Made by a program: the position numbers and the translations under genes. From the IMG/VR virus record IMGVR_UViG_3300042519_001716: a stretch of 11,048 nucleotides of DNA, one strand, 5' to 3'. A model generated the notes under the pieces. The model saw only the letters and a program-made list of their open reading frames with translations. It searched no databases and had not been told where the DNA came from. This document shows, one piece after another, positions 1 through 11,004 of the stretch (position 1 is its first letter; every line of letters begins with the position of its first letter). The DNA comes from a virus. Its lineage: Duplodnaviria > Heunggongvirae > Uroviricota > Caudoviricetes.

Positions 1-2
1 AT

Positions 3-35
3 AAAAAAGGGATATGAGTAGCGAATTCATATCCC
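3..35 (-). terminator. Intrinsic terminator closing the minus-strand block
   Basis: Perfect 9-bp stem GGGATATGA(9-17)/TCATATCCC(27-35) with a 9-nt loop, followed on the minus strand by a U6 tract (A3-A8 on +). Confidence 0.8.
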
Positions 36-107
36 AACGGGATTAGTAACTAGTCCCGGTCCTAAGCTGGGTCTTCAAACCCAGGTTATCGTTGGTTATT
101 TATAACC
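34..107. ncRNA. Putative structured RNA or multi-hairpin element (three-way junction) upstream of the terminator
   Basis: Stems: CCAACG(34-39)/CGTTGG(90-95), CGGGATTAG(38-46)/CTAGTCCCG(50-58), CTGGGT(67-72)/ACCCAG(79-84), GGTTAT(94-99)/ATAACC(102-107). The region is non-coding and GC-enriched relative to its surroundings. Family not recognised. Confidence 0.45.
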
Positions 108-118
108 ATTATTTCATT

Positions 119-685
119 CTATTTTACACCACCTCTATTAAAGTCTCTCAAATCCTCGCTATATTTGATCACTAAATTATTATACAACTCAGTCATACGT
201 TCATCTAAACCAAATTCCTTTTTGTATAGTCTAAGAGCCGTAATCTTTTTTTCAAGGTTCTCTAGTTCTTCTTTCTTACTAAGTTTTGGCGGCGCAATTT
301 GTTTAGGTTCATCGACCACATTTGGAGTATTCAACTTATCATACGTAGTTTTGGGTGGTTGAAGATCATATGGCAAGATATCGTCACGATATGACGAATC
401 TTCAATACTGTCACCCGATGCATTAGGTCTGTCTTTTTCCCAATGTGGCCTATATTCTTTACCTGGGTCTGGGAACTCTTTTTGGAAGTCTTGTTTAAAT
501 TGGTTTGCTGCTGCACGTTTTTTTAGATATGCATCATTAGGTCTACCTGTTTGAGTTTTAAAATCAGGGTTGCCTCTTACAACATCATAATTATCATATC
601 GTTTGCTAATATATGCTCGCTCATTTATAACTTTTTTAACCAAGTTAACAAGTTCCGATTCAGTTATTTTGATGATTTTATTCAT
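119..685 (-). CDS. Hypothetical protein (188 aa) with N-terminal KIIKITESELVNLVKKVINE tag, Pro/Asp-rich middle and C-terminal helical region
   Basis: Long ORF tiling with its neighbours, late-type motif upstream (704-711), N-terminal tag shared with 3920..4639 and with the C-terminus of 3112..3882. Confidence 0.85.
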   Translation of the reverse strand: MNKIIKITESELVNLVKKVINERAYISKRYDNYDVVRGNPDFKTQTGRPNDAYLKKRAAANQFKQDFQKEFPDPGKEYRPHWEKDRPNASGDSIEDSSYRDDILPYDLQPPKTTYDKLNTPNVVDEPKQIAPPKLSKKEELENLEKKITALRLYKKEFGLDERMTELYNNLVIKYSEDLRDFNRGGVK

Positions 686-703
686 TTTATTTCTTTTATC
701 TTT

Positions 704-711
704 AATAAATA
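704..711 (-). promoter_or_regulatory. TATTTATA-like motif (TATTTATT), 18 nt before the ATG at 685
   Basis: 7/8 match. It abuts the stop codon of the upstream gene and is followed by AAAGATAAAA, like the copy at 3911-3918. Confidence 0.55.
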
Positions 712-1128
712 TTATTTATGTTTAATTATCAATTCACCAAGCACTTCAATGCGTCCAACCAATTTCTGAAATGCAACTTGTTCCATGTCAGAAGATAAAT
801 CCTTAACACATTGTTTAAATTCTTTTTTAGCTGCAGCAAGATCGAACTTACCTTCGGCCGCTTTATTATAATAAGGTTTTTTAACGTTAAAGTGATGATA
901 GGTAAGCATCGCAAGCCCACCTTTCGCTTTTGCTGTTGTTGCGATCTTATCCGCACCTTTCATTCTTGTCTCAGCAAACTCATCAAATGATTTTGGTGTA
1001 TTATCATGACCACACTTATGGCACAAGTATTTCTCCTTACCGCCTTCAGATTCTTTCCATGACCAATCACAATGATTGCATTTTATTTTTTTATCTTTAG
1101 CTTCTGTTAATAAATCTATTAATTTCAT
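712..1128 (-). CDS. Hypothetical protein (138 aa) with N-terminal Zn-ribbon (CNHC...CHKC)
   Basis: Two CxxC motifs (CNHC, CHKC) after an MKLIDLLTEA leader. The start lies 1 nt from the stop of the upstream gene, suggesting coupling. Confidence 0.85.
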   Translation of the reverse strand: MKLIDLLTEAKDKKIKCNHCDWSWKESEGGKEKYLCHKCGHDNTPKSFDEFAETRMKGADKIATTAKAKGGLAMLTYHHFNVKKPYYNKAAEGKFDLAAAKKEFKQCVKDLSSDMEQVAFQKLVGRIEVLGELIIKHK

Positions 1129-1129
1129 A

Positions 1130-1852
1130 TTAATCTTTTTTGTCTGATGTTAAAAAATCATATAGCGATCTAAGTTTTTTATAATGACCATCATAAAGTC
1201 TAAAACCATTTAGTTCTTTCATATCATGTTTTTGATATTCTTTATGTAAATTATCCCAAGTTTCGTATGTACCCAAGTATTTTGGGTTATCTTCAACAAA
1301 TCTTTCAAATGTTGGGTAATTAATATGACCACCTGGGAATACCGTTGATAGCTCAACCTTATCAGGATTTACTCGACCGAATTTATCTAGAATGTTTTTA
1401 GCCTCTTCAAAACCTCTTCTAATGCTTTCTACTGTTGCATATGGATCCATTATAACATCCGCTTCAAATCTGGTTAATGCTTGCCCGGTAATGTTATTAC
1501 CAAGAAGTGAAACTAGCAATTCCTCATATGCTTCTAATTTTAGTTTTGCAAGTTTTCTTCTTTTAAGGGTGATTAGATCAGATCTAATAGCTGAGATTAT
1601 TTTAGATTTATTTTTAACAAACTCATCAGCTTCTTTATTTTCTCTCCACTCACTAAATTCCTCACCTCTATTTCTAAAATAATTAGACATTTCGTTCCAA
1701 TCATAATTAAACATATAGATGCCAGAATAATTGCTTTCCAGAAATTCTAATAATTCCGGCGGGAAATTATCAAACACACCAAGATTCTCCCCTTCATTAA
1801 GGCCCATCATGTGTTTAATTTTTTTAATCTGCTCGTTAATATTCTGTTTCAT
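1130..1852 (-). CDS. Hypothetical protein (about 240 aa) with MKQNINEQIKKIKHMMGLNE N-terminal tag
   Basis: The ORF track starts at 1858. The ATG at 1852 is preferred because it aligns with the N-terminus of 1896..2399 and has CATTTAAT 4 nt upstream. Confidence 0.85.
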   Translation of the reverse strand: MKQNINEQIKKIKHMMGLNEGENLGVFDNFPPELLEFLESNYSGIYMFNYDWNEMSNYFRNRGEEFSEWRENKEADEFVKNKSKIISAIRSDLITLKRRKLAKLKLEAYEELLVSLLGNNITGQALTRFEADVIMDPYATVESIRRGFEEAKNILDKFGRVNPDKVELSTVFPGGHINYPTFERFVEDNPKYLGTYETWDNLHKEYQKHDMKELNGFRLYDGHYKKLRSLYDFLTSDKKD

Positions 1853-1866
1853 TTCCATTAAATGTA

Positions 1867-1884
1867 GCGGCGAAGCCGCGGCCG
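1867..1884. other. GC-rich intergenic mini-hairpin GCGGC-GAA-GCCGC (contains GCGAAGC)
   Basis: Stem 1867-1871/1875-1879 with a GAA loop. 16 of 18 nt are G/C in an AT-rich 43-nt spacer. No U-tract on either side. Confidence 0.6.
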
Positions 1885-1895
1885 TTGTTATGTTA

Positions 1896-2399
1896 TTACC
1901 ATCTTAACAAACCAAACAGACGTGACTTCTTTCCATCACACCAATAGGTTGTTGTTTTATTAAATCTAATGAACTTAGCCAAAAATGATAATATCATTAT
2001 AAAGATAATTCCACCAATAACCATTGCAAAAGCTGGTGGCATGCTAACACCCAATAATGATATAACGGCCGGTCCGGCAACTTGTTCATTTTGCTGTTGT
2101 CTCTTTAATTCTTTCAATTGTTTTTTTACTTGCATTAGTTCAGCGAATGATGCGGTTTTCATTTTTTCTTTTAATTCCATCACCTTTTGCTTCTCTTCAT
2201 CGCCAATATTTGGCATATCAGCATCATCTGGATCTGAGCATGTAAGCTCCTTATATTCTTCCGGAGTTAAATCCTCATCAACCTTCTGGTTAAATTCTTC
2301 AGTCTCTTGTTGCAACATCGCCATTGTTTGTGATTCATCTTCATTAAGACTCATCATTGCTTTAATTCTAGCTACCTGCTCGTTTAATGTTTGCTTCAT
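1896..2399 (-). CDS. Putative membrane protein (167 aa) with MKQTLNEQVARIKAMMSLNE tag
   Basis: Acidic helical N-terminal half, hydrophobic stretch AVISLLGVSMPPAFAMVIGGIIFIMILSFLA and a basic tail. Confidence 0.85.
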   Translation of the reverse strand: MKQTLNEQVARIKAMMSLNEDESQTMAMLQQETEEFNQKVDEDLTPEEYKELTCSDPDDADMPNIGDEEKQKVMELKEKMKTASFAELMQVKKQLKELKRQQQNEQVAGPAVISLLGVSMPPAFAMVIGGIIFIMILSFLAKFIRFNKTTTYWCDGKKSRLFGLLRW

Positions 2400-2509
2400 T
2401 TTATTAAATATTTTTTTATAATATCATTATTCTTTTTTATTTGTTCCATTTTTTTAACCCCAGATCTTCTCGATCTTCTAGCTACGGGTTTTTTCTTTTT
2501 GTTTGCCAT
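2396..2509 (-). CDS. Small basic peptide (37 aa, MANKKKKPVARRSRRSGVKKMEQIKKNNDIIKKYLIK), possible nucleic-acid-binding protein
   Basis: Translated by hand; it is below the ORF-track cutoff. It fills the gap between 2521..3033 and 1896..2399, and its TGA overlaps the next ATG (ATGA). 15 K/R versus 2 D/E. Confidence 0.7.
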   Translation of the reverse strand: MANKKKKPVARRSRRSGVKKMEQIKKNNDIIKKYLIK

Positions 2510-2520
2510 GTACTATATTT

Positions 2521-3033
2521 TTAACCATTATAATCGTCATAACTATTTATTTCATCTTCAATCATTACACCAAAAAATTCATGTAAAAAGCTTCCACCAT
2601 AACTAATACGGTTTTGGCCATATCTTGATTCTGTCTCACCAATTTTTAAATTTGTAAAATCTGTAAAATCTGGCCCCTCATAAACAACCTGATCATTATC
2701 CATAACAGTTAGTTGTGTTATATCAATATCATATTCCGCCGGATCATAATCTCCGGGATCGTCATAAGTTGCCGGTGTGTATGATGGATATGCGGTAATA
2801 TCAATTTCAAAGTTATATTGAAGAAAATATTCAGAAGAACCACCCTCAGATAAAACGATATTCGAAACCCCTTTTACATCAAGATCATAGTCCCAAATAA
2901 AATCTCTTTGATCTTTACTGCTATCAGCAAACATAAACTTAACCAATACCTGTTTTGCAACCCATTTTGCATGTTCAGACGGCCCCTCACTCTCAGCAAT
3001 CAAAATATCCTTAATTATGTCCTTAAACTTCAT
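2521..3033 (-). CDS. Acidic hypothetical protein (170 aa), starts MKFKDIIKDILIAE
   Basis: Start moved from 3111 to 3033 because the extension runs through a terminator and the TATTTATA motif. Contains an acidic YTPATYDDPGDYDPAEY segment. Confidence 0.8.
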   Translation of the reverse strand: MKFKDIIKDILIAESEGPSEHAKWVAKQVLVKFMFADSSKDQRDFIWDYDLDVKGVSNIVLSEGGSSEYFLQYNFEIDITAYPSYTPATYDDPGDYDPAEYDIDITQLTVMDNDQVVYEGPDFTDFTNLKIGETESRYGQNRISYGGSFLHEFFGVMIEDEINSYDDYNG

Positions 3034-3037
3034 AGTA

Positions 3038-3045
3038 TATAAATA
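3038..3045 (-). promoter_or_regulatory. TATTTATA motif, 4 nt before ATG 3033
   Basis: Perfect copy, intergenic, with the same spacing as the copies at 5367 and 5959. Confidence 0.7.
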
Positions 3046-3082
3046 TAGGTAAAACCCATATGTGTCCAAAATGGTTACCAAT

Positions 3083-3104
3083 AAAAAACCCCGAAAAATC
3101 GGGG
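3083..3104 (-). terminator. Intrinsic terminator after 3112..3882
   Basis: CCCCGA(3089-3094)/TCGGGG(3099-3104) stem with a 4-nt loop and a U6 tract on the minus strand (A3083-3088). Confidence 0.8.
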
Positions 3105-3111
3105 CTTTCAT

Positions 3112-3882
3112 TTATTTCTTTGTTGTTTGTTTGACTATGTTTTTCACCAGCTCTATCAATTCGCTTTCGGTTAACCTAAGAACGGATTCGTTCACACCTG
3201 GTTTTAGCGAAGCCGCCGCCAATCTTTTATCCGCTAATTCTCGACTCCTAGCCATCTCCCATTTCATTCGTTTTCTTTGCTCTTTTGCCCATTCTCTTTC
3301 TTTTCTTTGTGCGATTATTTTCTTTTTTTCTTCCCATGATAACAAATTTTCTGGATCGGTTCTATCTTTATCTGTATACTTGGGGAAATCAAGTGGCGCA
3401 TTTTTCTTTCTATCAGCCAATGTTTCTGATTCCATATCTGGATCTGGAGTTCCATATGTTCTTAAATAATAATCTGAAGTTGGTTGCTTCGGTATAGTAC
3501 TCGAAGTACGCGAGGACATATCAGAAGGACCATTAATCATGGTTGGTATTTCATTGTAAAAATCCTGTGCAACATTATAGTCAATATCTTTTGGACCAGA
3601 ATGACCCATATCAACCATCTTATCCTTTGGCAAATTTTGCTTTGCCACAGATAGATCATAAAGATCTTCATAGTCATCCGGATCATCACCAAACTCCATA
3701 TTAAATTCAGGAGTTTCATCCTCCATATCGTCATCACCAGCATATAACTTGTTTAGTTCCATTTCCTCATCATCACTATCAATCTCCTCAACAATACCTT
3801 TTGGCTTCTTATAACCAAAAGAACCATGCTGTTCCATTATCTGCTTTCTTTCTTCGTCCGTTAAATTAAAATTTTTATACAT
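3112..3882 (-). CDS. Acidic low-complexity hypothetical protein (256 aa) with N-terminal LTDEERKQIMEQH leader and C-terminal LRLTESELIELVKNIV tag
   Basis: Long ORF bounded by a TATTTATA motif and a terminator. D/E-rich N-terminal half and a charged helix near the C-terminus. Confidence 0.85.
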   Translation of the reverse strand: MYKNFNLTDEERKQIMEQHGSFGYKKPKGIVEEIDSDDEEMELNKLYAGDDDMEDETPEFNMEFGDDPDDYEDLYDLSVAKQNLPKDKMVDMGHSGPKDIDYNVAQDFYNEIPTMINGPSDMSSRTSSTIPKQPTSDYYLRTYGTPDPDMESETLADRKKNAPLDFPKYTDKDRTDPENLLSWEEKKKIIAQRKEREWAKEQRKRMKWEMARSRELADKRLAAASLKPGVNESVLRLTESELIELVKNIVKQTTKK

Positions 3883-3910
3883 TACAAATATCTTTTGTTT
3901 TTATCTTTTA

Positions 3911-3918
3911 TATAAATA
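3911..3918 (-). promoter_or_regulatory. TATTTATA motif, 28 nt before ATG 3882
   Basis: Perfect copy directly after the TAG of 3920..4639, followed by AAAGATAAAA. Confidence 0.7.
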
Positions 3919-3919
3919 T

Positions 3920-4639
3920 CTATGACTCTAGATTAGGTTTAATATAGTTTTTGATGATAAAGGTTATATACTTCTTCTGCGTGCCAGCATTAAACGGCGC
4001 ATGTATATTGGTATGACTACGCAAATCCCTAACCATATTGGTAATTCTTTTTGTAATGATATCAAGACTCAACGCCTTCCAATTGGGATAATTTTCCACA
4101 AACCTATCAAATATCTCTCTACCATGTAGAACCATCTCTTGTCTGTCTCTATAATACATCTTCATACCATCTGGATGTGTATTATATAAACAGTTCTCAA
4201 CACCCCTTTGTGACATATAGAAATGGCTGCACTCATGCTTAAGAATGTGAGGCAACCCCTTAACCAAACGCCAAGCTGGATCACCACCCCTTAAACTTTG
4301 ATATTCACTAGAATCCTTAGCCAAAACCTTCACCTGTATATAATCCTGACTAGCATAACCAATACCCGTACCGTTATTTGATAACCTAAAATCAATGGTC
4401 ACCTCATATGGTTGCAAACATTCTATCTCCGGATGAAACACATACTTCTTTTCACTAGGTAAACTAATATTATGCTCATAATAATTCATAACATCCTGAT
4501 AGATCTCCTCACCAATATATCTGGCAGTCTTATCCACAGGTAATAAATCCAATATGTCAATCAACTCCTCAGGAGATCCAGGTTTCCCAGCCTCAATAAT
4601 TCTCTTAAGTTGAGATTCTGTTATAATAATCTTTTTCAT
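3920..4639 (-). CDS. Putative zincin-like metallopeptidase (239 aa) with MKKIIITESQLKRIIE tag
   Basis: HExxH motif (ILKHECSHFY) followed about 30 aa later by YYRDRQEM, a candidate third-ligand Glu. Confidence 0.65.
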   Translation of the reverse strand: MKKIIITESQLKRIIEAGKPGSPEELIDILDLLPVDKTARYIGEEIYQDVMNYYEHNISLPSEKKYVFHPEIECLQPYEVTIDFRLSNNGTGIGYASQDYIQVKVLAKDSSEYQSLRGGDPAWRLVKGLPHILKHECSHFYMSQRGVENCLYNTHPDGMKMYYRDRQEMVLHGREIFDRFVENYPNWKALSLDIITKRITNMVRDLRSHTNIHAPFNAGTQKKYITFIIKNYIKPNLES

Positions 4640-4651
4640 ATAATAAATTAA

Positions 4652-5362
4652 CTATTTTACCTTAATGTTAAACTCCTCAAAGAAGTCAGGATAACTCTGA
4701 CGATAACCTTCCAATGTTTCCTCATCATACTCAATATCTTCAGCATTCCAAAACCAATATAAATCCTTATCAGCCTTAAACCCATAGTAATCATGGTTCT
4801 CATATTGAAGCTGACATATATCATCAGCATACTGATGCTGCCCCACACAAATGAACCCCGAAGTAACATCTTTTATTATATTCGTTTCCCCGTATGGAAT
4901 ATATCTATTGTTAATCCAATTCAATCTTTCAATCAGCTTCTGATAAAACATATTTGCTGCACCCCACCTAACAGAAGAGAAAAATATAACACAGTCAGAC
5001 TCAAACAATTCCTTACTTATCTTCCAAAGCTCATCATCAGGATTATGTATTGACGCCCAACATCTATGATATCCAGTTGGATTCTTATCTTTATCTTTTA
5101 ATTGAGCCTCCATGATCCCACAAACATTACCCTCCATTCTTGAAACATTACCCTCACAAGGATAAATGTTTAATTTGGTTACATCTATTAATGTGGAATT
5201 CTCAACCTTATCATTAATAATCGATGCAAGAATCGATGATTTTGGCTTTTGTGTTTTTATTACTTCAGAATTCCTATTGGAACATGTTAAAAGTAACACA
5301 CGTTCAAATTTCTTTAACTTACTGATAGTCGTCTTTAATCTTGTTAAATTTCCTTCGGTCAT
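4652..5362 (-). CDS. WrbA/NADPH-dependent FMN reductase-like flavoprotein (236 aa)
   Basis: Flavodoxin-fold pattern: VLLLTCSNR (FMN phosphate loop), IDVTKLNIYPCEG, DDELWKISKELFESDCVIFFSSVRWG, QKLIERL. Start moved from 5509 to 5362 because the extension overlaps the PRTase gene and TATTTATA lies 4 nt upstream of 5362. Confidence 0.8.
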   Translation of the reverse strand: MTEGNLTRLKTTISKLKKFERVLLLTCSNRNSEVIKTQKPKSSILASIINDKVENSTLIDVTKLNIYPCEGNVSRMEGNVCGIMEAQLKDKDKNPTGYHRCWASIHNPDDELWKISKELFESDCVIFFSSVRWGAANMFYQKLIERLNWINNRYIPYGETNIIKDVTSGFICVGQHQYADDICQLQYENHDYYGFKADKDLYWFWNAEDIEYDEETLEGYRQSYPDFFEEFNIKVK

Positions 5363-5366
5363 ATTA

Positions 5367-5374
5367 TATAAATA
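5367..5374 (-). promoter_or_regulatory. TATTTATA motif, 4 nt before ATG 5362
   Basis: Perfect copy in the 25-nt spacer between the PRTase and flavoprotein genes. Confidence 0.7.
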
Positions 5375-5387
5375 TTCTAAATAACCA

Positions 5388-5954
5388 TTAATCTTCCAAC
5401 CTAAATAGACATACACCAACCGCATTGATGTTGTTAGGTATAATATTAAACGCGTTTCTGAATGAACTACCTGTGGTGATGAAATCATCCACAACACATA
5501 TGTTATCACTTAACTCAAAGTCCATATTAAACAGTCCAGTAATACTCCTTCTCTCAGCTTTAGGTACCCCTCTCATTTTAAAAGAATTATCCATCTTCTT
5601 AAACCCGTCTTTAATTGATGGTTTATTAATAACACCCATAATATCATCGTTAATATTTGAAGAGGTTTCCAATGAAACGAGCATATCAGTATTTGCTAGT
5701 TTCGCAACAGAATCAAATCTTTTTTTAAACGTACGCAAAAAATGAACATAGCTTTCTCCGTTTAACTCTAACGTGTTGGACATACCCTTAATAGCCAATA
5801 TAGCTTCTCTATTATTATAATAACCCACATTACCGAATAAAGCATATACTACACGATCACCCACATTGAATTTTCTAATCTTATCATAAGGATTAATCAA
5901 TTTTACACTATTACCATCAATCTCGATCTCCTCAAATATATTAGTTAGTTTCAT
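5388..5954 (-). CDS. Type I phosphoribosyltransferase-domain protein (188 aa)
   Basis: PRPP-binding loop ICVVDDFITTGSSF near the C-terminus, followed by a helix and terminal strand (AVGVCLF). Start moved from 6035 to 5954 (MKLTNIFEE). Confidence 0.8.
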   Translation of the reverse strand: MKLTNIFEEIEIDGNSVKLINPYDKIRKFNVGDRVVYALFGNVGYYNNREAILAIKGMSNTLELNGESYVHFLRTFKKRFDSVAKLANTDMLVSLETSSNINDDIMGVINKPSIKDGFKKMDNSFKMRGVPKAERRSITGLFNMDFELSDNICVVDDFITTGSSFRNAFNIIPNNINAVGVCLFRLED

Positions 5955-5958
5955 ATAG

Positions 5959-5966
5959 TATAAATA
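5959..5966 (-). promoter_or_regulatory. TATTTATA motif, 4 nt before ATG 5954
   Basis: Perfect copy, intergenic, immediately downstream of a minus-strand terminator. Confidence 0.7.
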
Positions 5967-9431: not shown

Positions 9432-9692
9432 ATGAAATCATTTGATTTTTATTTAGACACAAAGGTTACAACTTGGTATCGAACCCCTTTTGAAATTGAG
9501 GCTAACTCTTTGGAGGAGGCCAAGCAAAAGGCTATCAAGTTCGTTAAAGATGATGAGCATAGTTCTATCTCTTGGGATCAAGTTGATGAAACTATCGAGG
9601 TGATGTCGGTAGATGAAAATGGTGGTGAGTCTACGGAGGAACTATATTATGAGTCCAGCAAAAATATGGTTTGGGATAACACTAAGAAATAA
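9432..9692 (+). CDS. Small acidic hypothetical protein (86 aa) with FEIEANSLEEAKQKA motif
   Basis: The xEAxSxEEA motif is common in small phage proteins (DpnD/PcfM-like, tentative). A-rich leader before the ATG. Confidence 0.8.
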   Translation: MKSFDFYLDTKVTTWYRTPFEIEANSLEEAKQKAIKFVKDDEHSSISWDQVDETIEVMSVDENGGESTEELYYESSKNMVWDNTKK

Positions 9693-9694
9693 TT

Positions 9695-9720
9695 ATGGTA
9701 GGGATTTTGTCCCTATCCAT
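9695..9720 (+). terminator. Hairpin after 9432..9692
   Basis: ATGG-TAGGGA(9695-9704)/TCCCTA-t-CCAT(9710-9720), followed by TTTATT. Confidence 0.45.
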
Positions 9721-9762
9721 TTTATTCTTAAATTTGAATTATTAATTAAAACTATTTCAATT

Positions 9763-10002
9763 ATGGAAAAGAAACTAAAATGTAGAACAAGCGAATTTAA
9801 AAGTGATATAACTTTTAATGAATGGGTTGTTATGTTTAATGTTAGTCGAGACTATATCCAGCCGACTCCTTATTTTCAAGGTAATCCCAAAACCATTATG
9901 GAATTTGACGGATATAAACTTAATCGAAAAAAAGAACCATTGTCTTGGAGAATTGGGAAAATAGCCACTATGCTGGTGAATAGTATTAAATTGCCGTTTT
10001 AA
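9763..10002 (+). CDS. Hypothetical protein (79 aa), starts MEKKLKC
   Basis: Start moved from 9613 to 9763 because the extension overlaps the previous gene and crosses a hairpin and an AT-rich spacer. Confidence 0.7.
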   Translation: MEKKLKCRTSEFKSDITFNEWVVMFNVSRDYIQPTPYFQGNPKTIMEFDGYKLNRKKEPLSWRIGKIATMLVNSIKLPF

Positions 10003-10010
10003 GTAGTTAG

Positions 10011-10045
10011 TCCCGCATTCGTAATACGGGTGCGGGATCTTTTTT
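10011..10045 (+). terminator. Intrinsic terminator
   Basis: 12-bp stem TCCCGCATTCGT(10011-10022)/ACGGGTGCGGGA(10026-10037) with two G-U pairs, followed by TCTTTTTT. Confidence 0.8.
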
Positions 10046-10069
10046 AATTTACTTATTACAAAAAATAAA

Positions 10070-10100
10070 TTTGTTGGTTTAAATTATTTCATTTAAATTG
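10070..10100 (+). promoter_or_regulatory. Degenerate Bacteroidota sigma-type promoter
   Basis: TTTG(10070-10073), then TAAATTG(10094-10100) followed by C. The -7 box is imperfect. It lies after a terminator and 8 nt before the ATG. Confidence 0.45.
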
Positions 10101-10108
10101 CGTTCACT

Positions 10109-10459
10109 ATGTTAGACTCTAAAACTTTAATCTTTACGCGTGGCGAATTCTCCCAATCAATATGGAAGTTTGAACCTGGTGATTTCGAGGATATGAGATT
10201 GTCCGATGCGGAGTTGGATGATCTGCACGATAGGTTGATCGCGTATTACCAATATATGTTGATCACCAATGAAAATTCGATCAAGGAATTTCGTGCAAAT
10301 CTTGTAGATTTGATATGGGAATTCGCGTATGATGAATTTGAGTCTACTGATGATTGGATTGGTTTAGCAAAAAGTACGGAGGAAGATTTGATATGGAATG
10401 TGCGTTCGTGTTTTGCTTATGTTATTGAAAGGAATGCTGAGATGTATGAAGATTATTAA
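10109..10459 (+). CDS. Acidic hypothetical protein (116 aa)
   Basis: ORF tiles the region, is D/E-rich and looks helical. No motif recognised. Confidence 0.75.
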   Translation: MLDSKTLIFTRGEFSQSIWKFEPGDFEDMRLSDAELDDLHDRLIAYYQYMLITNENSIKEFRANLVDLIWEFAYDEFESTDDWIGLAKSTEEDLIWNVRSCFAYVIERNAEMYEDY

Positions 10460-10477
10460 CCTTTAAATAAAGTTCGT

Positions 10478-10687
10478 ATGACAACTACAAACAACAAATG
10501 GCCGATCGGTCAAATTATTGAGATCATTAAAATGGATGATCCACAAGCACCGCCACCGCATACACGCGGAGTAATACAATCAATTGATGGTATAGGGCAG
10601 ATCCACGTAAAATGGGATAATGGTTCAAGTCTGGCAGTTCAGCCGTATGACGATGTTTATCGAATTCTTGATGAACCAAAAAAATAA
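10478..10687 (+). CDS. DUF4314-like protein (69 aa)
   Basis: Recognised pattern IEIIKMDDPQAPPPHTRGVIQSIDGIGQIHVKWDNGSSLAV. Confidence 0.85.
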   Translation: MTTTNNKWPIGQIIEIIKMDDPQAPPPHTRGVIQSIDGIGQIHVKWDNGSSLAVQPYDDVYRILDEPKK

Positions 10688-10688
10688 T

Positions 10689-10719
10689 TTTGGTAATTAA
10701 ATAATTTTATTTATTTTTG
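10689..10719 (+). promoter_or_regulatory. Bacteroidota sigma-type promoter
   Basis: TTTG(10689-10692)-N19-TATTTTTG(10712-10719). Confidence 0.7.
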
Positions 10720-10740
10720 CTAAACAAAACAATTTAACCT

Positions 10741-11004
10741 ATGGCAAAGAAAACATTTAAAATCGGGGAGTACGCAATCGGAGGAATTATCCAAGTGTGT
10801 ACTACAAGTGAATCGGTTACTATTGATGCACTTGATTGGAATAGTAAGCAGAAAATTATGGGTAGAGAATTTCAAGTTAGAGCAACCAATGTTACTAACG
10901 AAATGGATAACTACCTAAATGAATTAACGAGTTCGTATTACGCAGACAAGGTATTAGACTTTATCAAAGAAAATGTTACATTTAATCTTAACTATCAATT
11001 TTAA
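10741..11004 (+). CDS. Hypothetical protein (87 aa)
   Basis: ORF 21 nt downstream of a host-type promoter. No motif recognised. Confidence 0.8.
   Translation: MAKKTFKIGEYAIGGIIQVCTTSESVTIDALDWNSKQKIMGREFQVRATNVTNEMDNYLNELTSSYYADKVLDFIKENVTFNLNYQF

Follow-up and report, generated by a model that had tools for sequence, protein, structure and literature searches.

Exchangeable short tags on unrelated, putatively late proteins of a giant T4-like Bacteroidota phage as candidate capsid-targeting propeptides

Introduction

A phage's first weapons against the defences of its host are the proteins that it delivers along with its DNA. An anti-restriction protein and an ADP-ribosyltransferase are among those injected by T4. 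We know of no way to learn which proteins are injected by phages that have not been cultured. The capsid-targeting sequence (CTS) of the T4 internal proteins IPI, IPII and IPIII was reportedly described by Mullaney and Black in 1996. Ten residues long (MKTYQEFIAE; PMC8442874), this peptide is enough to get a protein packaged, and the cut by gp21 falls after L/I-x-E (PMC9026906, PMC3012670). Removal of 65 residues from gp23 is likewise the work of gp21 (PMC9958956), and Alt is processed at both of its ends (PMC9026906). The present analysis concerns IMG/VR record IMGVR_UViG_3300042519_001716, a stretch of 11,048 nucleotides that is called the window throughout and belongs to an uncultured giant T4-like phage of Bacteroidota. 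Its minus strand carries, at 119-5954, nine genes (g1-g9) arranged head to tail, on which short leaders, termed tags here, recur in front of otherwise unrelated proteins.

The best explanation of these tags, advanced here with moderate confidence, is that they are capsid-targeting propeptides removed by the head protease. A tag would bind the scaffold core as the prohead assembles, so that its protein ends up inside the capsid, after which a gp21-type (Peptidase_S77) protease would cut behind the [I/L/V]-x-E that ends an N-terminal tag and free the mature protein in the head. The same enzyme would cut at the [I/L/V]-x-E that precedes internal or C-terminal copies, and at least some of the tagged proteins would exit the head with the DNA at infection. 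Core binding, cleavage, presence in the virion and ejection of the tagged proteins are steps that we infer. This explanation is preferred because it alone covers five points together: the Glu at the junction is kept across unrelated tags, a cut-site-like motif precedes the non-N-terminal copies, a T4-type protease is present in the lineage, the shortest tag type resembles the T4 CTS, and a promoter-like motif is common to tagged genes and head genes.

At least three tag types are present, namely type c (9-14 residues, T4-CTS-like), type b (about 20 residues) and type a (about 20 residues, a strand followed by a helix). The T4 CTS and the propeptides of Alt are, like these tags, short N-terminal peptides on unrelated proteins that end in L/I-x-E, and T4 resembles the window lineage in having a gp21-family protease in the head module and in the clustering of the genes concerned in a variable region. 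Type c matches the CTS in length and in the pattern M-K-x-x-[D/N/E]-[I/L]-[I/L]-x-E, and the C-terminal propeptide that Alt also loses may be compared with the C-terminal type a copies described below. T4 has a single tag sequence on four genes, whereas the window lineage has at least three unrelated ones, two of them of about 20 residues, on about 25 genes per genome. The CTS is N-terminal, whereas the type a strand-helix has further copies inside proteins, at their C-termini and in tandem; moreover, the host phylum here is Bacteroidota and the system is known from sequence alone. Relatedness to the CTS extends only to length and pattern for type c, and types a and b are unrelated to it, so the tags belong to a different peptide family and are analogous to the CTS, in a phage lineage that is related to that of T4. 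The tag principle itself is thus already known from T4; new here are three tag families that coexist and are exchanged, a position-independent module of 20 residues, and the scale of the island in which they occur.

Two further systems invite comparison. In phiKZ, 201phi2-1 and SPN3US, propeptides of inner-body and ejection proteins are cut by gp175/gp245 after S/A/G-x-E (PMC9026906, PMC5694885, PMC7411985). As here, the genomes are large; as is proposed here, a distant gp21 homologue cuts after Glu, and dozens of proteins are internal to the head, with several cut sites per propeptide; unlike here, the propeptides are long and without a common short tag, the P3 preference is another one, and these phages stand outside the T4 gp23/gp20 lineage. 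Encapsulins have cargo-loading peptides, and P22 scaffolding protein has a coat-binding helix; these are short terminal helices that address unrelated cargo into an HK97-fold shell from either terminus, but they are not removed by a maturation protease, bind the shell directly and have no sequence similarity to the tags.

Results

Leaders in the window

The N-termini quoted in the original prediction were all found on the minus strand where it had placed them. Its central observation, that a few leaders recur on unrelated bodies, proved to be real and to extend well past the window, with a short helical leader on eight of the nine genes. The genes and their leaders, all on the minus strand, are as follows.

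119-685, minus: g1; type a leader at 620-685 (residues 1-22: strand KIIKI, TES cap, amphipathic helix ending I-N-E)
712-1128, minus: g2; type c leader MKLIDLLTE at 1102-1128 (ends L-T-E), then a zinc-ribbon insert and a conserved body
1130-1858, minus: g3; type b leader at 1793-1858 (ends L-N-E)
1896-2399, minus: g4; type b leader at 2340-2399 (ends L-N-E); body an acidic coiled coil plus a transmembrane segment
2521-3033, minus: g5; type c leader MKFKDIIKDILIAE at 2992-3033 (ends I-A-E)
3112-3882, minus: g6; N-terminal leader NLTDEERKQIMEQH at 3826-3882, a type a variant that recurs in metagenome contigs L005 and L019
3121-3186, minus: C-terminal type a copy of g6 (residues 233-254, V-N-E just before; 23 bits against the type a hidden Markov model, HMM)
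3920-4639, minus: g7; type a leader at 4592-4639 (residues 1-16, ends I-I-E directly before the conserved body, K-x-GSPEEL)
4652-5362, minus: g8; sole gene of the block without a leader
5388-5954, minus: g9; type c leader MKLTNIFEE at 5928-5954

Likeness between termini was assessed by the best ungapped BLOSUM62 score of 25-residue termini, set against 4000 pairs of internal 25-residue windows from the same proteins (mean 14.7, maximum 37). The N-termini of g3 and g4 scored 69 and the N-terminus of g1 scored 56 against the C-terminus of g6, both above the background maximum; the latter two are near-identical copies on two different proteins. The N-termini of g1 and g7 scored 31 (p = 0.002), which alone is not significant after 108 comparisons, and the type c pairs were not significant alone in this window test. 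As a set, the N-termini were more alike than internal windows (Mann-Whitney p = 6e-6). The g1 leader matched the type a HMM with 32.8 bits over residues 3-23. The window by itself is therefore enough to prove type b (g3 and g4) and type a (g1 N-terminus with g6 C-terminus); the case for type c depends on comparative evidence.

The motif [L/I]-x-E lies within the first 22 residues of eight of the nine proteins, g8 being without it. When the leader-rich blocks of related loci are counted together with that of the window, 36 of 56 genes have it; the corresponding figures are 21% for internal windows taken from these proteins (binomial p = 3e-12) and 12 of 35 for genes in neighbouring blocks (Fisher p = 0.009).

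Exchange of leaders between bodies

No mutual BLAST matches were obtained among the bodies of the tagged genes; their leaders are nonetheless common to them and swapped between them. The clearest case is g7, for which 37 homologues were found in metagenomes and 24 of these, 23 of them full-length, were aligned. All 23 full-length proteins have one common body from K-x-GSPEEL onward, preceded by at least five different leaders (MKKIIITESQLKRIIE, MKLLDIILE, MKYIKLFE, MKLYKLYEEVLGE and MKGYIKKLLRESLLSE), and in every one the leader ends in [I/L/V]-x-E, 5-10 residues before GSPEEL. In the AlphaFold 2 (AF2) model of g7 built from the family alignment, the body has a predicted local distance difference test score (pLDDT) of about 90 and residues 1-21 one of about 40, the leader being drawn as a free helix; its detachment and low pLDDT mark the leader as an add-on that is not part of the fold. 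Some g7 homologues bear C-terminal extensions of 100-170 residues.

Other bodies changed leaders as well. The g3 body carries a type b leader in the window and a type a leader in metagenome contig L007 (11627-12349). In contig L002 (11225-11995) a type b leader, 18-19 residues long, is added to the front of a g8 homologue, and g8 itself starts within two residues of where that leader ends. Homologues of g2 begin with MKLFELINE in L005 and with MRLLELLRE in Flavobacterium phage Immuto (gene at 112261), which together with g2's own leader makes three type c variants; MIKLIDLLTE, almost the g2 tag, heads an unrelated Immuto gene at 24569. In g2 the zinc ribbon (CxxC...CxxC) is inserted between tag and body. 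Searches of IMG/VR with the g7 protein and its alignment gave no relatives, and the window DNA, g7, g3 and the gp13 homologue of L002 had no match among INPHARED phages.

As a side observation, the g2 body (residues 46-138) is 57% identical to the product of Immuto 112261-112575, which is annotated as 'tRNA(Ile2) C34 agmatinyltransferase TiaS'; the annotation looks wrong because that product has only 104 residues. Relatives of g2 are encoded in more than 500 IMG/VR stretches.

A T4-type head protease in the lineage

The search for a gp21-like protease that the original prediction had proposed was successful in a close relative. This is IMG/VR contig IMGVR_UViG_3300021963_000023 (G001; 251,149 bp), found via the g2 search, which is 85-96% identical in nucleotides to window positions 1-3232, the only part of the window that it reaches. 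Its head and tail genes comprise terL, a gp20-type portal, Peptidase_S77, an acidic scaffold-like protein, a gp23-type major capsid protein (MCP), sheath, tube and baseplate, and its capsid protein matches 2556 T4-like phage records. The gp21-type Peptidase_S77 (77576-78265; E = 2e-24, above the Pfam cut-off) lies between the portal and the scaffold (78358-79554) and gp23-type MCP. The same module of portal, S77, scaffold and MCP was found in G002 (311 kb, estimated to be 93% complete), and Immuto (MW353175; T4-like, cultured on Flavobacterium sp. LMO8) has the same head module with S77.

In a three-way capsid alignment the T4 gp23 maturation site E65/A66 (the slash marks the cut) is invariant, reading L-I-N-E/A in G001 and I-V-S-E/A in Immuto. 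The kept E/A site is indirect evidence that the enzyme of the lineage cuts after [I/L/V]-x-E, and this specificity is probably retained in the window lineage.

Tags are found in Immuto as well, where MIKLIDLLTE stands on one gene, MRLLELLRE on the g2 homologue and a b-like leader on two genes. A shorter leader, MKKSQLxxIIKE, was found on four Immuto genes, one of them between portal and protease, which we take to be the place where T4 encodes core proteins. The metagenome contig L002/L010, which carries the g7 and g8 homologues, has T4 gp13 and sheath genes; walking along L002/L010 and L007/L017 yielded more tagged genes, sheath and gp13, and no head module. It was observed besides that the Immuto S77 protease (124660-125241) has at least 7987 relatives, the best 120 of which are 92-100% identical; the protein is unusually conserved, in a very abundant aquatic phage group.

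The type a module across the protein collection

A type a profile of 23 positions, built from 17 copies, was searched against 1.84 billion representative proteins and matched 95 protein clusters at E <= 1e-3, from many environments. The consensus, K-v-I-r-L-T-E-S-d-L-v-r-I-V-K-R-V-I-k-E, is a short strand followed, after a T-E-S cap, by an amphipathic helix, beyond which the sequence is variable and linker-like. Of the best matches, about three quarters begin at residues 1-8; many proteins have a second copy that is internal or C-terminal, and some predicted proteins of 45-68 residues consist of two type a copies joined by a Lys-rich linker.

There are 61 non-N-terminal copies, and 54% of them have [L/I/V/M]-x-E in the 13 residues upstream, typically as L-x-E-[N/S]-K-K-K, versus a background of 21%. 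The profile does not cover this 13-residue stretch, so the test is not circular. A type a copy that has cut-site-like motifs on both sides would fit an excisable handle, for which T4 Alt offers a precedent by analogy.

It is on this module that the main rival explanation draws. The tags could be general association modules that gather late accessory proteins in a complex or condensate, by pairing with one another or through a hub, with neither encapsidation nor cleavage. Such a role would suit a module that is position-independent, occurring at the N-terminus, at the C-terminus, internally, in tandem and in two-copy mini-proteins, and that is near-identical at the N-terminus of g1 and the C-terminus of g6. 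It would also suit the two-copy protein P0074, in whose AF2 model (mean pLDDT 40) both copies are drawn, at low confidence, as strand then helix. What such association leaves unexplained is the [I/L/V]-x-E at every junction of swapped leader and body, the site just upstream of non-N-terminal copies, and the T4-CTS likeness of the short type c; no hub protein was identified. We regard this rival as unlikely, and as the one to be taken most seriously.

Searched against all PDB sequences, the type a profile had its best match at E = 0.15 (Tsg101), and Pfam gave nothing. A ribbon-helix-helix (RHH) domain of the Arc/CopG kind was rejected as an identity for type a, no RHH protein being among the PDB sequences found with the profile and variable residues standing where a conserved second helix would be expected. 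The g1 tag gave scores of at most 0.80 in the ESM Atlas, a 30-residue tag had no tblastn match among phages, and a full-text literature search for the tag strings returned no relevant paper. The single IMG/VR match to a back-translated type a pattern was discarded as a chance match in a low-complexity contig.

Two side observations concern the spread of the module. Contig L018 (133 kb, gut-type) has, at 9470-10837, two adjacent type a paralogues (MKKNRIRLTES...) near primase-like and sigma-70-like genes, which places the module also in a different phage group, probably of gut Bacteroidales. A 63-residue protein from another assembly, P0101, is identical to g1 over its first 54 or so residues and divergent thereafter, which suggests a frameshifted or broken copy of the g1 cassette.

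Codon differences and cassette exchange

A further explanation would treat the shared termini as a by-product of cassette shuffling in a hyperplastic region, the leader being inherited baggage with at most a generic role in translation start or solubility. Several features of the locus are of the kind that shuffling produces. The g3 and g4 leaders are identical at 43 of 60 nucleotides and use a different codon at only 2 of 13 identical residues, almost without synonymous differences, which points to a recent DNA copy. The gene g1 is missing from G001, which begins within its g6 homologue: G001 3386-3478, equivalent to window 1-93, follows directly after the g2 homologue (end 3387), and g1 is thus a clean insertion (window 94-711), an inserted cassette. 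Leaders have been gained, lost and exchanged between homologues, and g1-g9 are without Shine-Dalgarno sequences and have A/T-rich gene starts.

Type a tells against it. The g1 N-terminus and the g6 C-terminus have eight identical residues, five of them with different codons, including Ser as TCG versus AGC, and G001, with eleven type a leaders, has different codons at 46% of the residues that are identical between them. Such differences count against the main cause being a recombination seam or a signal in RNA or DNA; selection acts on the leader peptide, not on the DNA. Shuffling by itself also does not account for a module found in 95 protein clusters, some copies of it C-terminal, where translation start is irrelevant, nor for a junction Glu kept across unrelated leader types. 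We consider it improbable that the shared termini are such a by-product.

Tag islands and a promoter-like motif

The block at 119-5954 is the right-hand edge of a putative late-gene island of about 40 kb (38 kb in G001). Of 24 regex-defined tagged genes in G001, 20 fall in the first 38 kb, which holds 52 of its 267 genes (Fisher p = 1e-12), as do 13 of its 14 matches to the type a HMM; counted by eye, about 25 of the roughly 50 island genes are tagged. G002 has a smaller tag island at 11-36 kb and a few tagged genes beside the head module, about 19 of 26 neighbouring genes are tagged in L005 (a 113-kb contig), and the 311-kb contig behind L019 has all tag types. Replication enzymes and virion shell proteins outside the islands are untagged. 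Those island genes that are untagged mostly encode secreted or outer-membrane proteins with Sec-type signal peptides, or endolysin. Among the tagged bodies tested, the only one with a Pfam domain is a C39-type cysteine peptidase (G001 9877-10854), the domain of which begins directly after the type a tag.

The location of the island bears on whether the tags could be recognition leaders for a modifying enzyme or chaperone, like those of ribosomally synthesised and post-translationally modified peptides (RiPPs). The genome family does have seven radical-SAM (S-adenosylmethionine) genes, but in G001 their positions, 219-226 kb and 244 kb, are at least 180 kb away from the island (0-38 kb), the tags have no Cys, Gly or Ser/Thr-rich core as is typical of modified peptides, and the tagged bodies are full-size folded proteins, all of which makes a RiPP-like role very improbable. 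Sec or lipoprotein signal peptides were rejected outright, the tags being amphipathic and charged throughout with no hydrophobic core of 10 or more residues, and true signal peptides being confined, within these islands, to genes that have no tag.

The motif TATTTATA, to which the original prediction had also drawn attention, occurs in five copies in the window against 2.5 expected. Its count is not significant; all four minus-strand copies do lie 4-28 nucleotides (nt) before the start codons of g5, g6, g8 and g9.

3038-3045, minus: copy before g5, 4 nt before the ATG
3911-3918, minus: copy before g6
5367-5374, minus: copy before g8
5959-5966, minus: copy before g9

In G001 the form TATTTAT[A/G] has 89 copies, of which 45 stand on the strand of a gene and no more than 45 nt ahead of its start codon. 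Among the genes so preceded are terL, portal, protease, scaffold, gp13-like, tube, baseplate and four fibre genes, and the motif precedes 10 of 24 tagged genes versus 35 of 243 others (p = 0.002). The TATTTAT[A/G] of G001 and the window is the reverse complement of the T4 late box and not the same word. It was noted in addition that TATTTAT[A/G] stands from a few to about 30 nt before these terL, head and tail genes, for example at G001 72410-72430, 74245-74262, 77540-77560 and 78320-78340, and that several G001 copies lie only 2-4 nt from the ATG, a gap that would give leaderless or near-leaderless late mRNAs.

Two side observations concern the gene content of such islands. Genes for TonB-dependent-receptor-like full-length outer-membrane proteins and a secreted Endonuclease_NS, with signal peptides, are found inside or beside tag islands (L017 16687-19221 and 19350-20024; L002 12172-15495). 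The first residues of a phage Fe/Mn superoxide dismutase at L010 9272-9961 are MKILETIKEE; this may be a type c tag, here on an identifiable enzyme.

Predicted functions and neighbouring genes

No credible family was found for any of g1-g9 in Pfam or PHROGs; g4 gave a weak match to PHROG 206, scaffolding (E = 6e-4). Most of the functional labels that had been given to the cargo are consequently unsupported. The 'peptidase' label of g7 had only the short motif HECSH behind it, and domain, sequence and fold searches came back empty; that of 'PRTase' (phosphoribosyltransferase) for g9 had only the short motif VVDDFITTGSS, and Pfam, PHROGs and PDB sequence searches were equally empty. Neither g8 nor g9 found anything among PDB sequences. 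In the g7 family K-H-E-C-x-H is invariant, as are other His, Glu and Cys residues, and the AF2 model is confident. Compared with the PDB and AFDB clusters, this model gave no credible fold match and only faint M48/M56 metallopeptidase rows; g7 may be a novel zinc hydrolase fold. To the right of g1-g9 lies an HNH endonuclease gene on the opposite strand, followed by small genes with DUF6011, DUF932 and DUF4314.

Discussion

Every sequence-level prediction of the capsid-targeting reading that could be examined was borne out, and the original prediction is partly supported. Its picture of a plain T4 CTS is too narrow because type a recurs at C-termini and inside proteins.

Several points weigh against capsid targeting. 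The cargo would comprise at least 25 genes, which is far beyond the T4 precedent. The protease gene is known from the close relative G001 and not from the window's own contig. Although [I/V/M]-x-E stands at the helix end in 77 of 88 N-terminal type a copies, this count is partly circular, these positions lying within the profile. The tandem, internal and C-terminal copies and the two-copy mini-proteins fit a general association module equally well, and type a is also present on the gut-metagenome contig L018, where head genes are not in view. The strict type a HMM found nothing in Immuto, from which the full module is absent. Finally, TATTTAT[A/G] is a putative late promoter, its role being deduced from the structural genes that it precedes.

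A more specific proposal, which we offer tentatively and hold to be rather less than probable, is that type a (basic linker, short strand, T-E-S cap and amphipathic helix ending I-x-E) serves, wherever it stands in a protein, as a capsid-loading handle that head-protease sites on both sides make excisable, and that many large Bacteroidota phages, of freshwater as well as of the gut, use it. In that case the sequence could tell directly which proteins such uncultured phages package and eject, and proteins with several copies might cross-link cargo into an internal body.

Should the tags indeed be capsid-loading signals, about 25 proteins per genome would become candidate ejected effectors in an abundant aquatic group of Bacteroidota phages, most of them ORFans and one a C39-type peptidase. 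The tags would then offer a ready means of bringing foreign proteins into such capsids, and the CTS principle of T4 would have diversified in these phages into several interchangeable tag families and been scaled up by about an order of magnitude.

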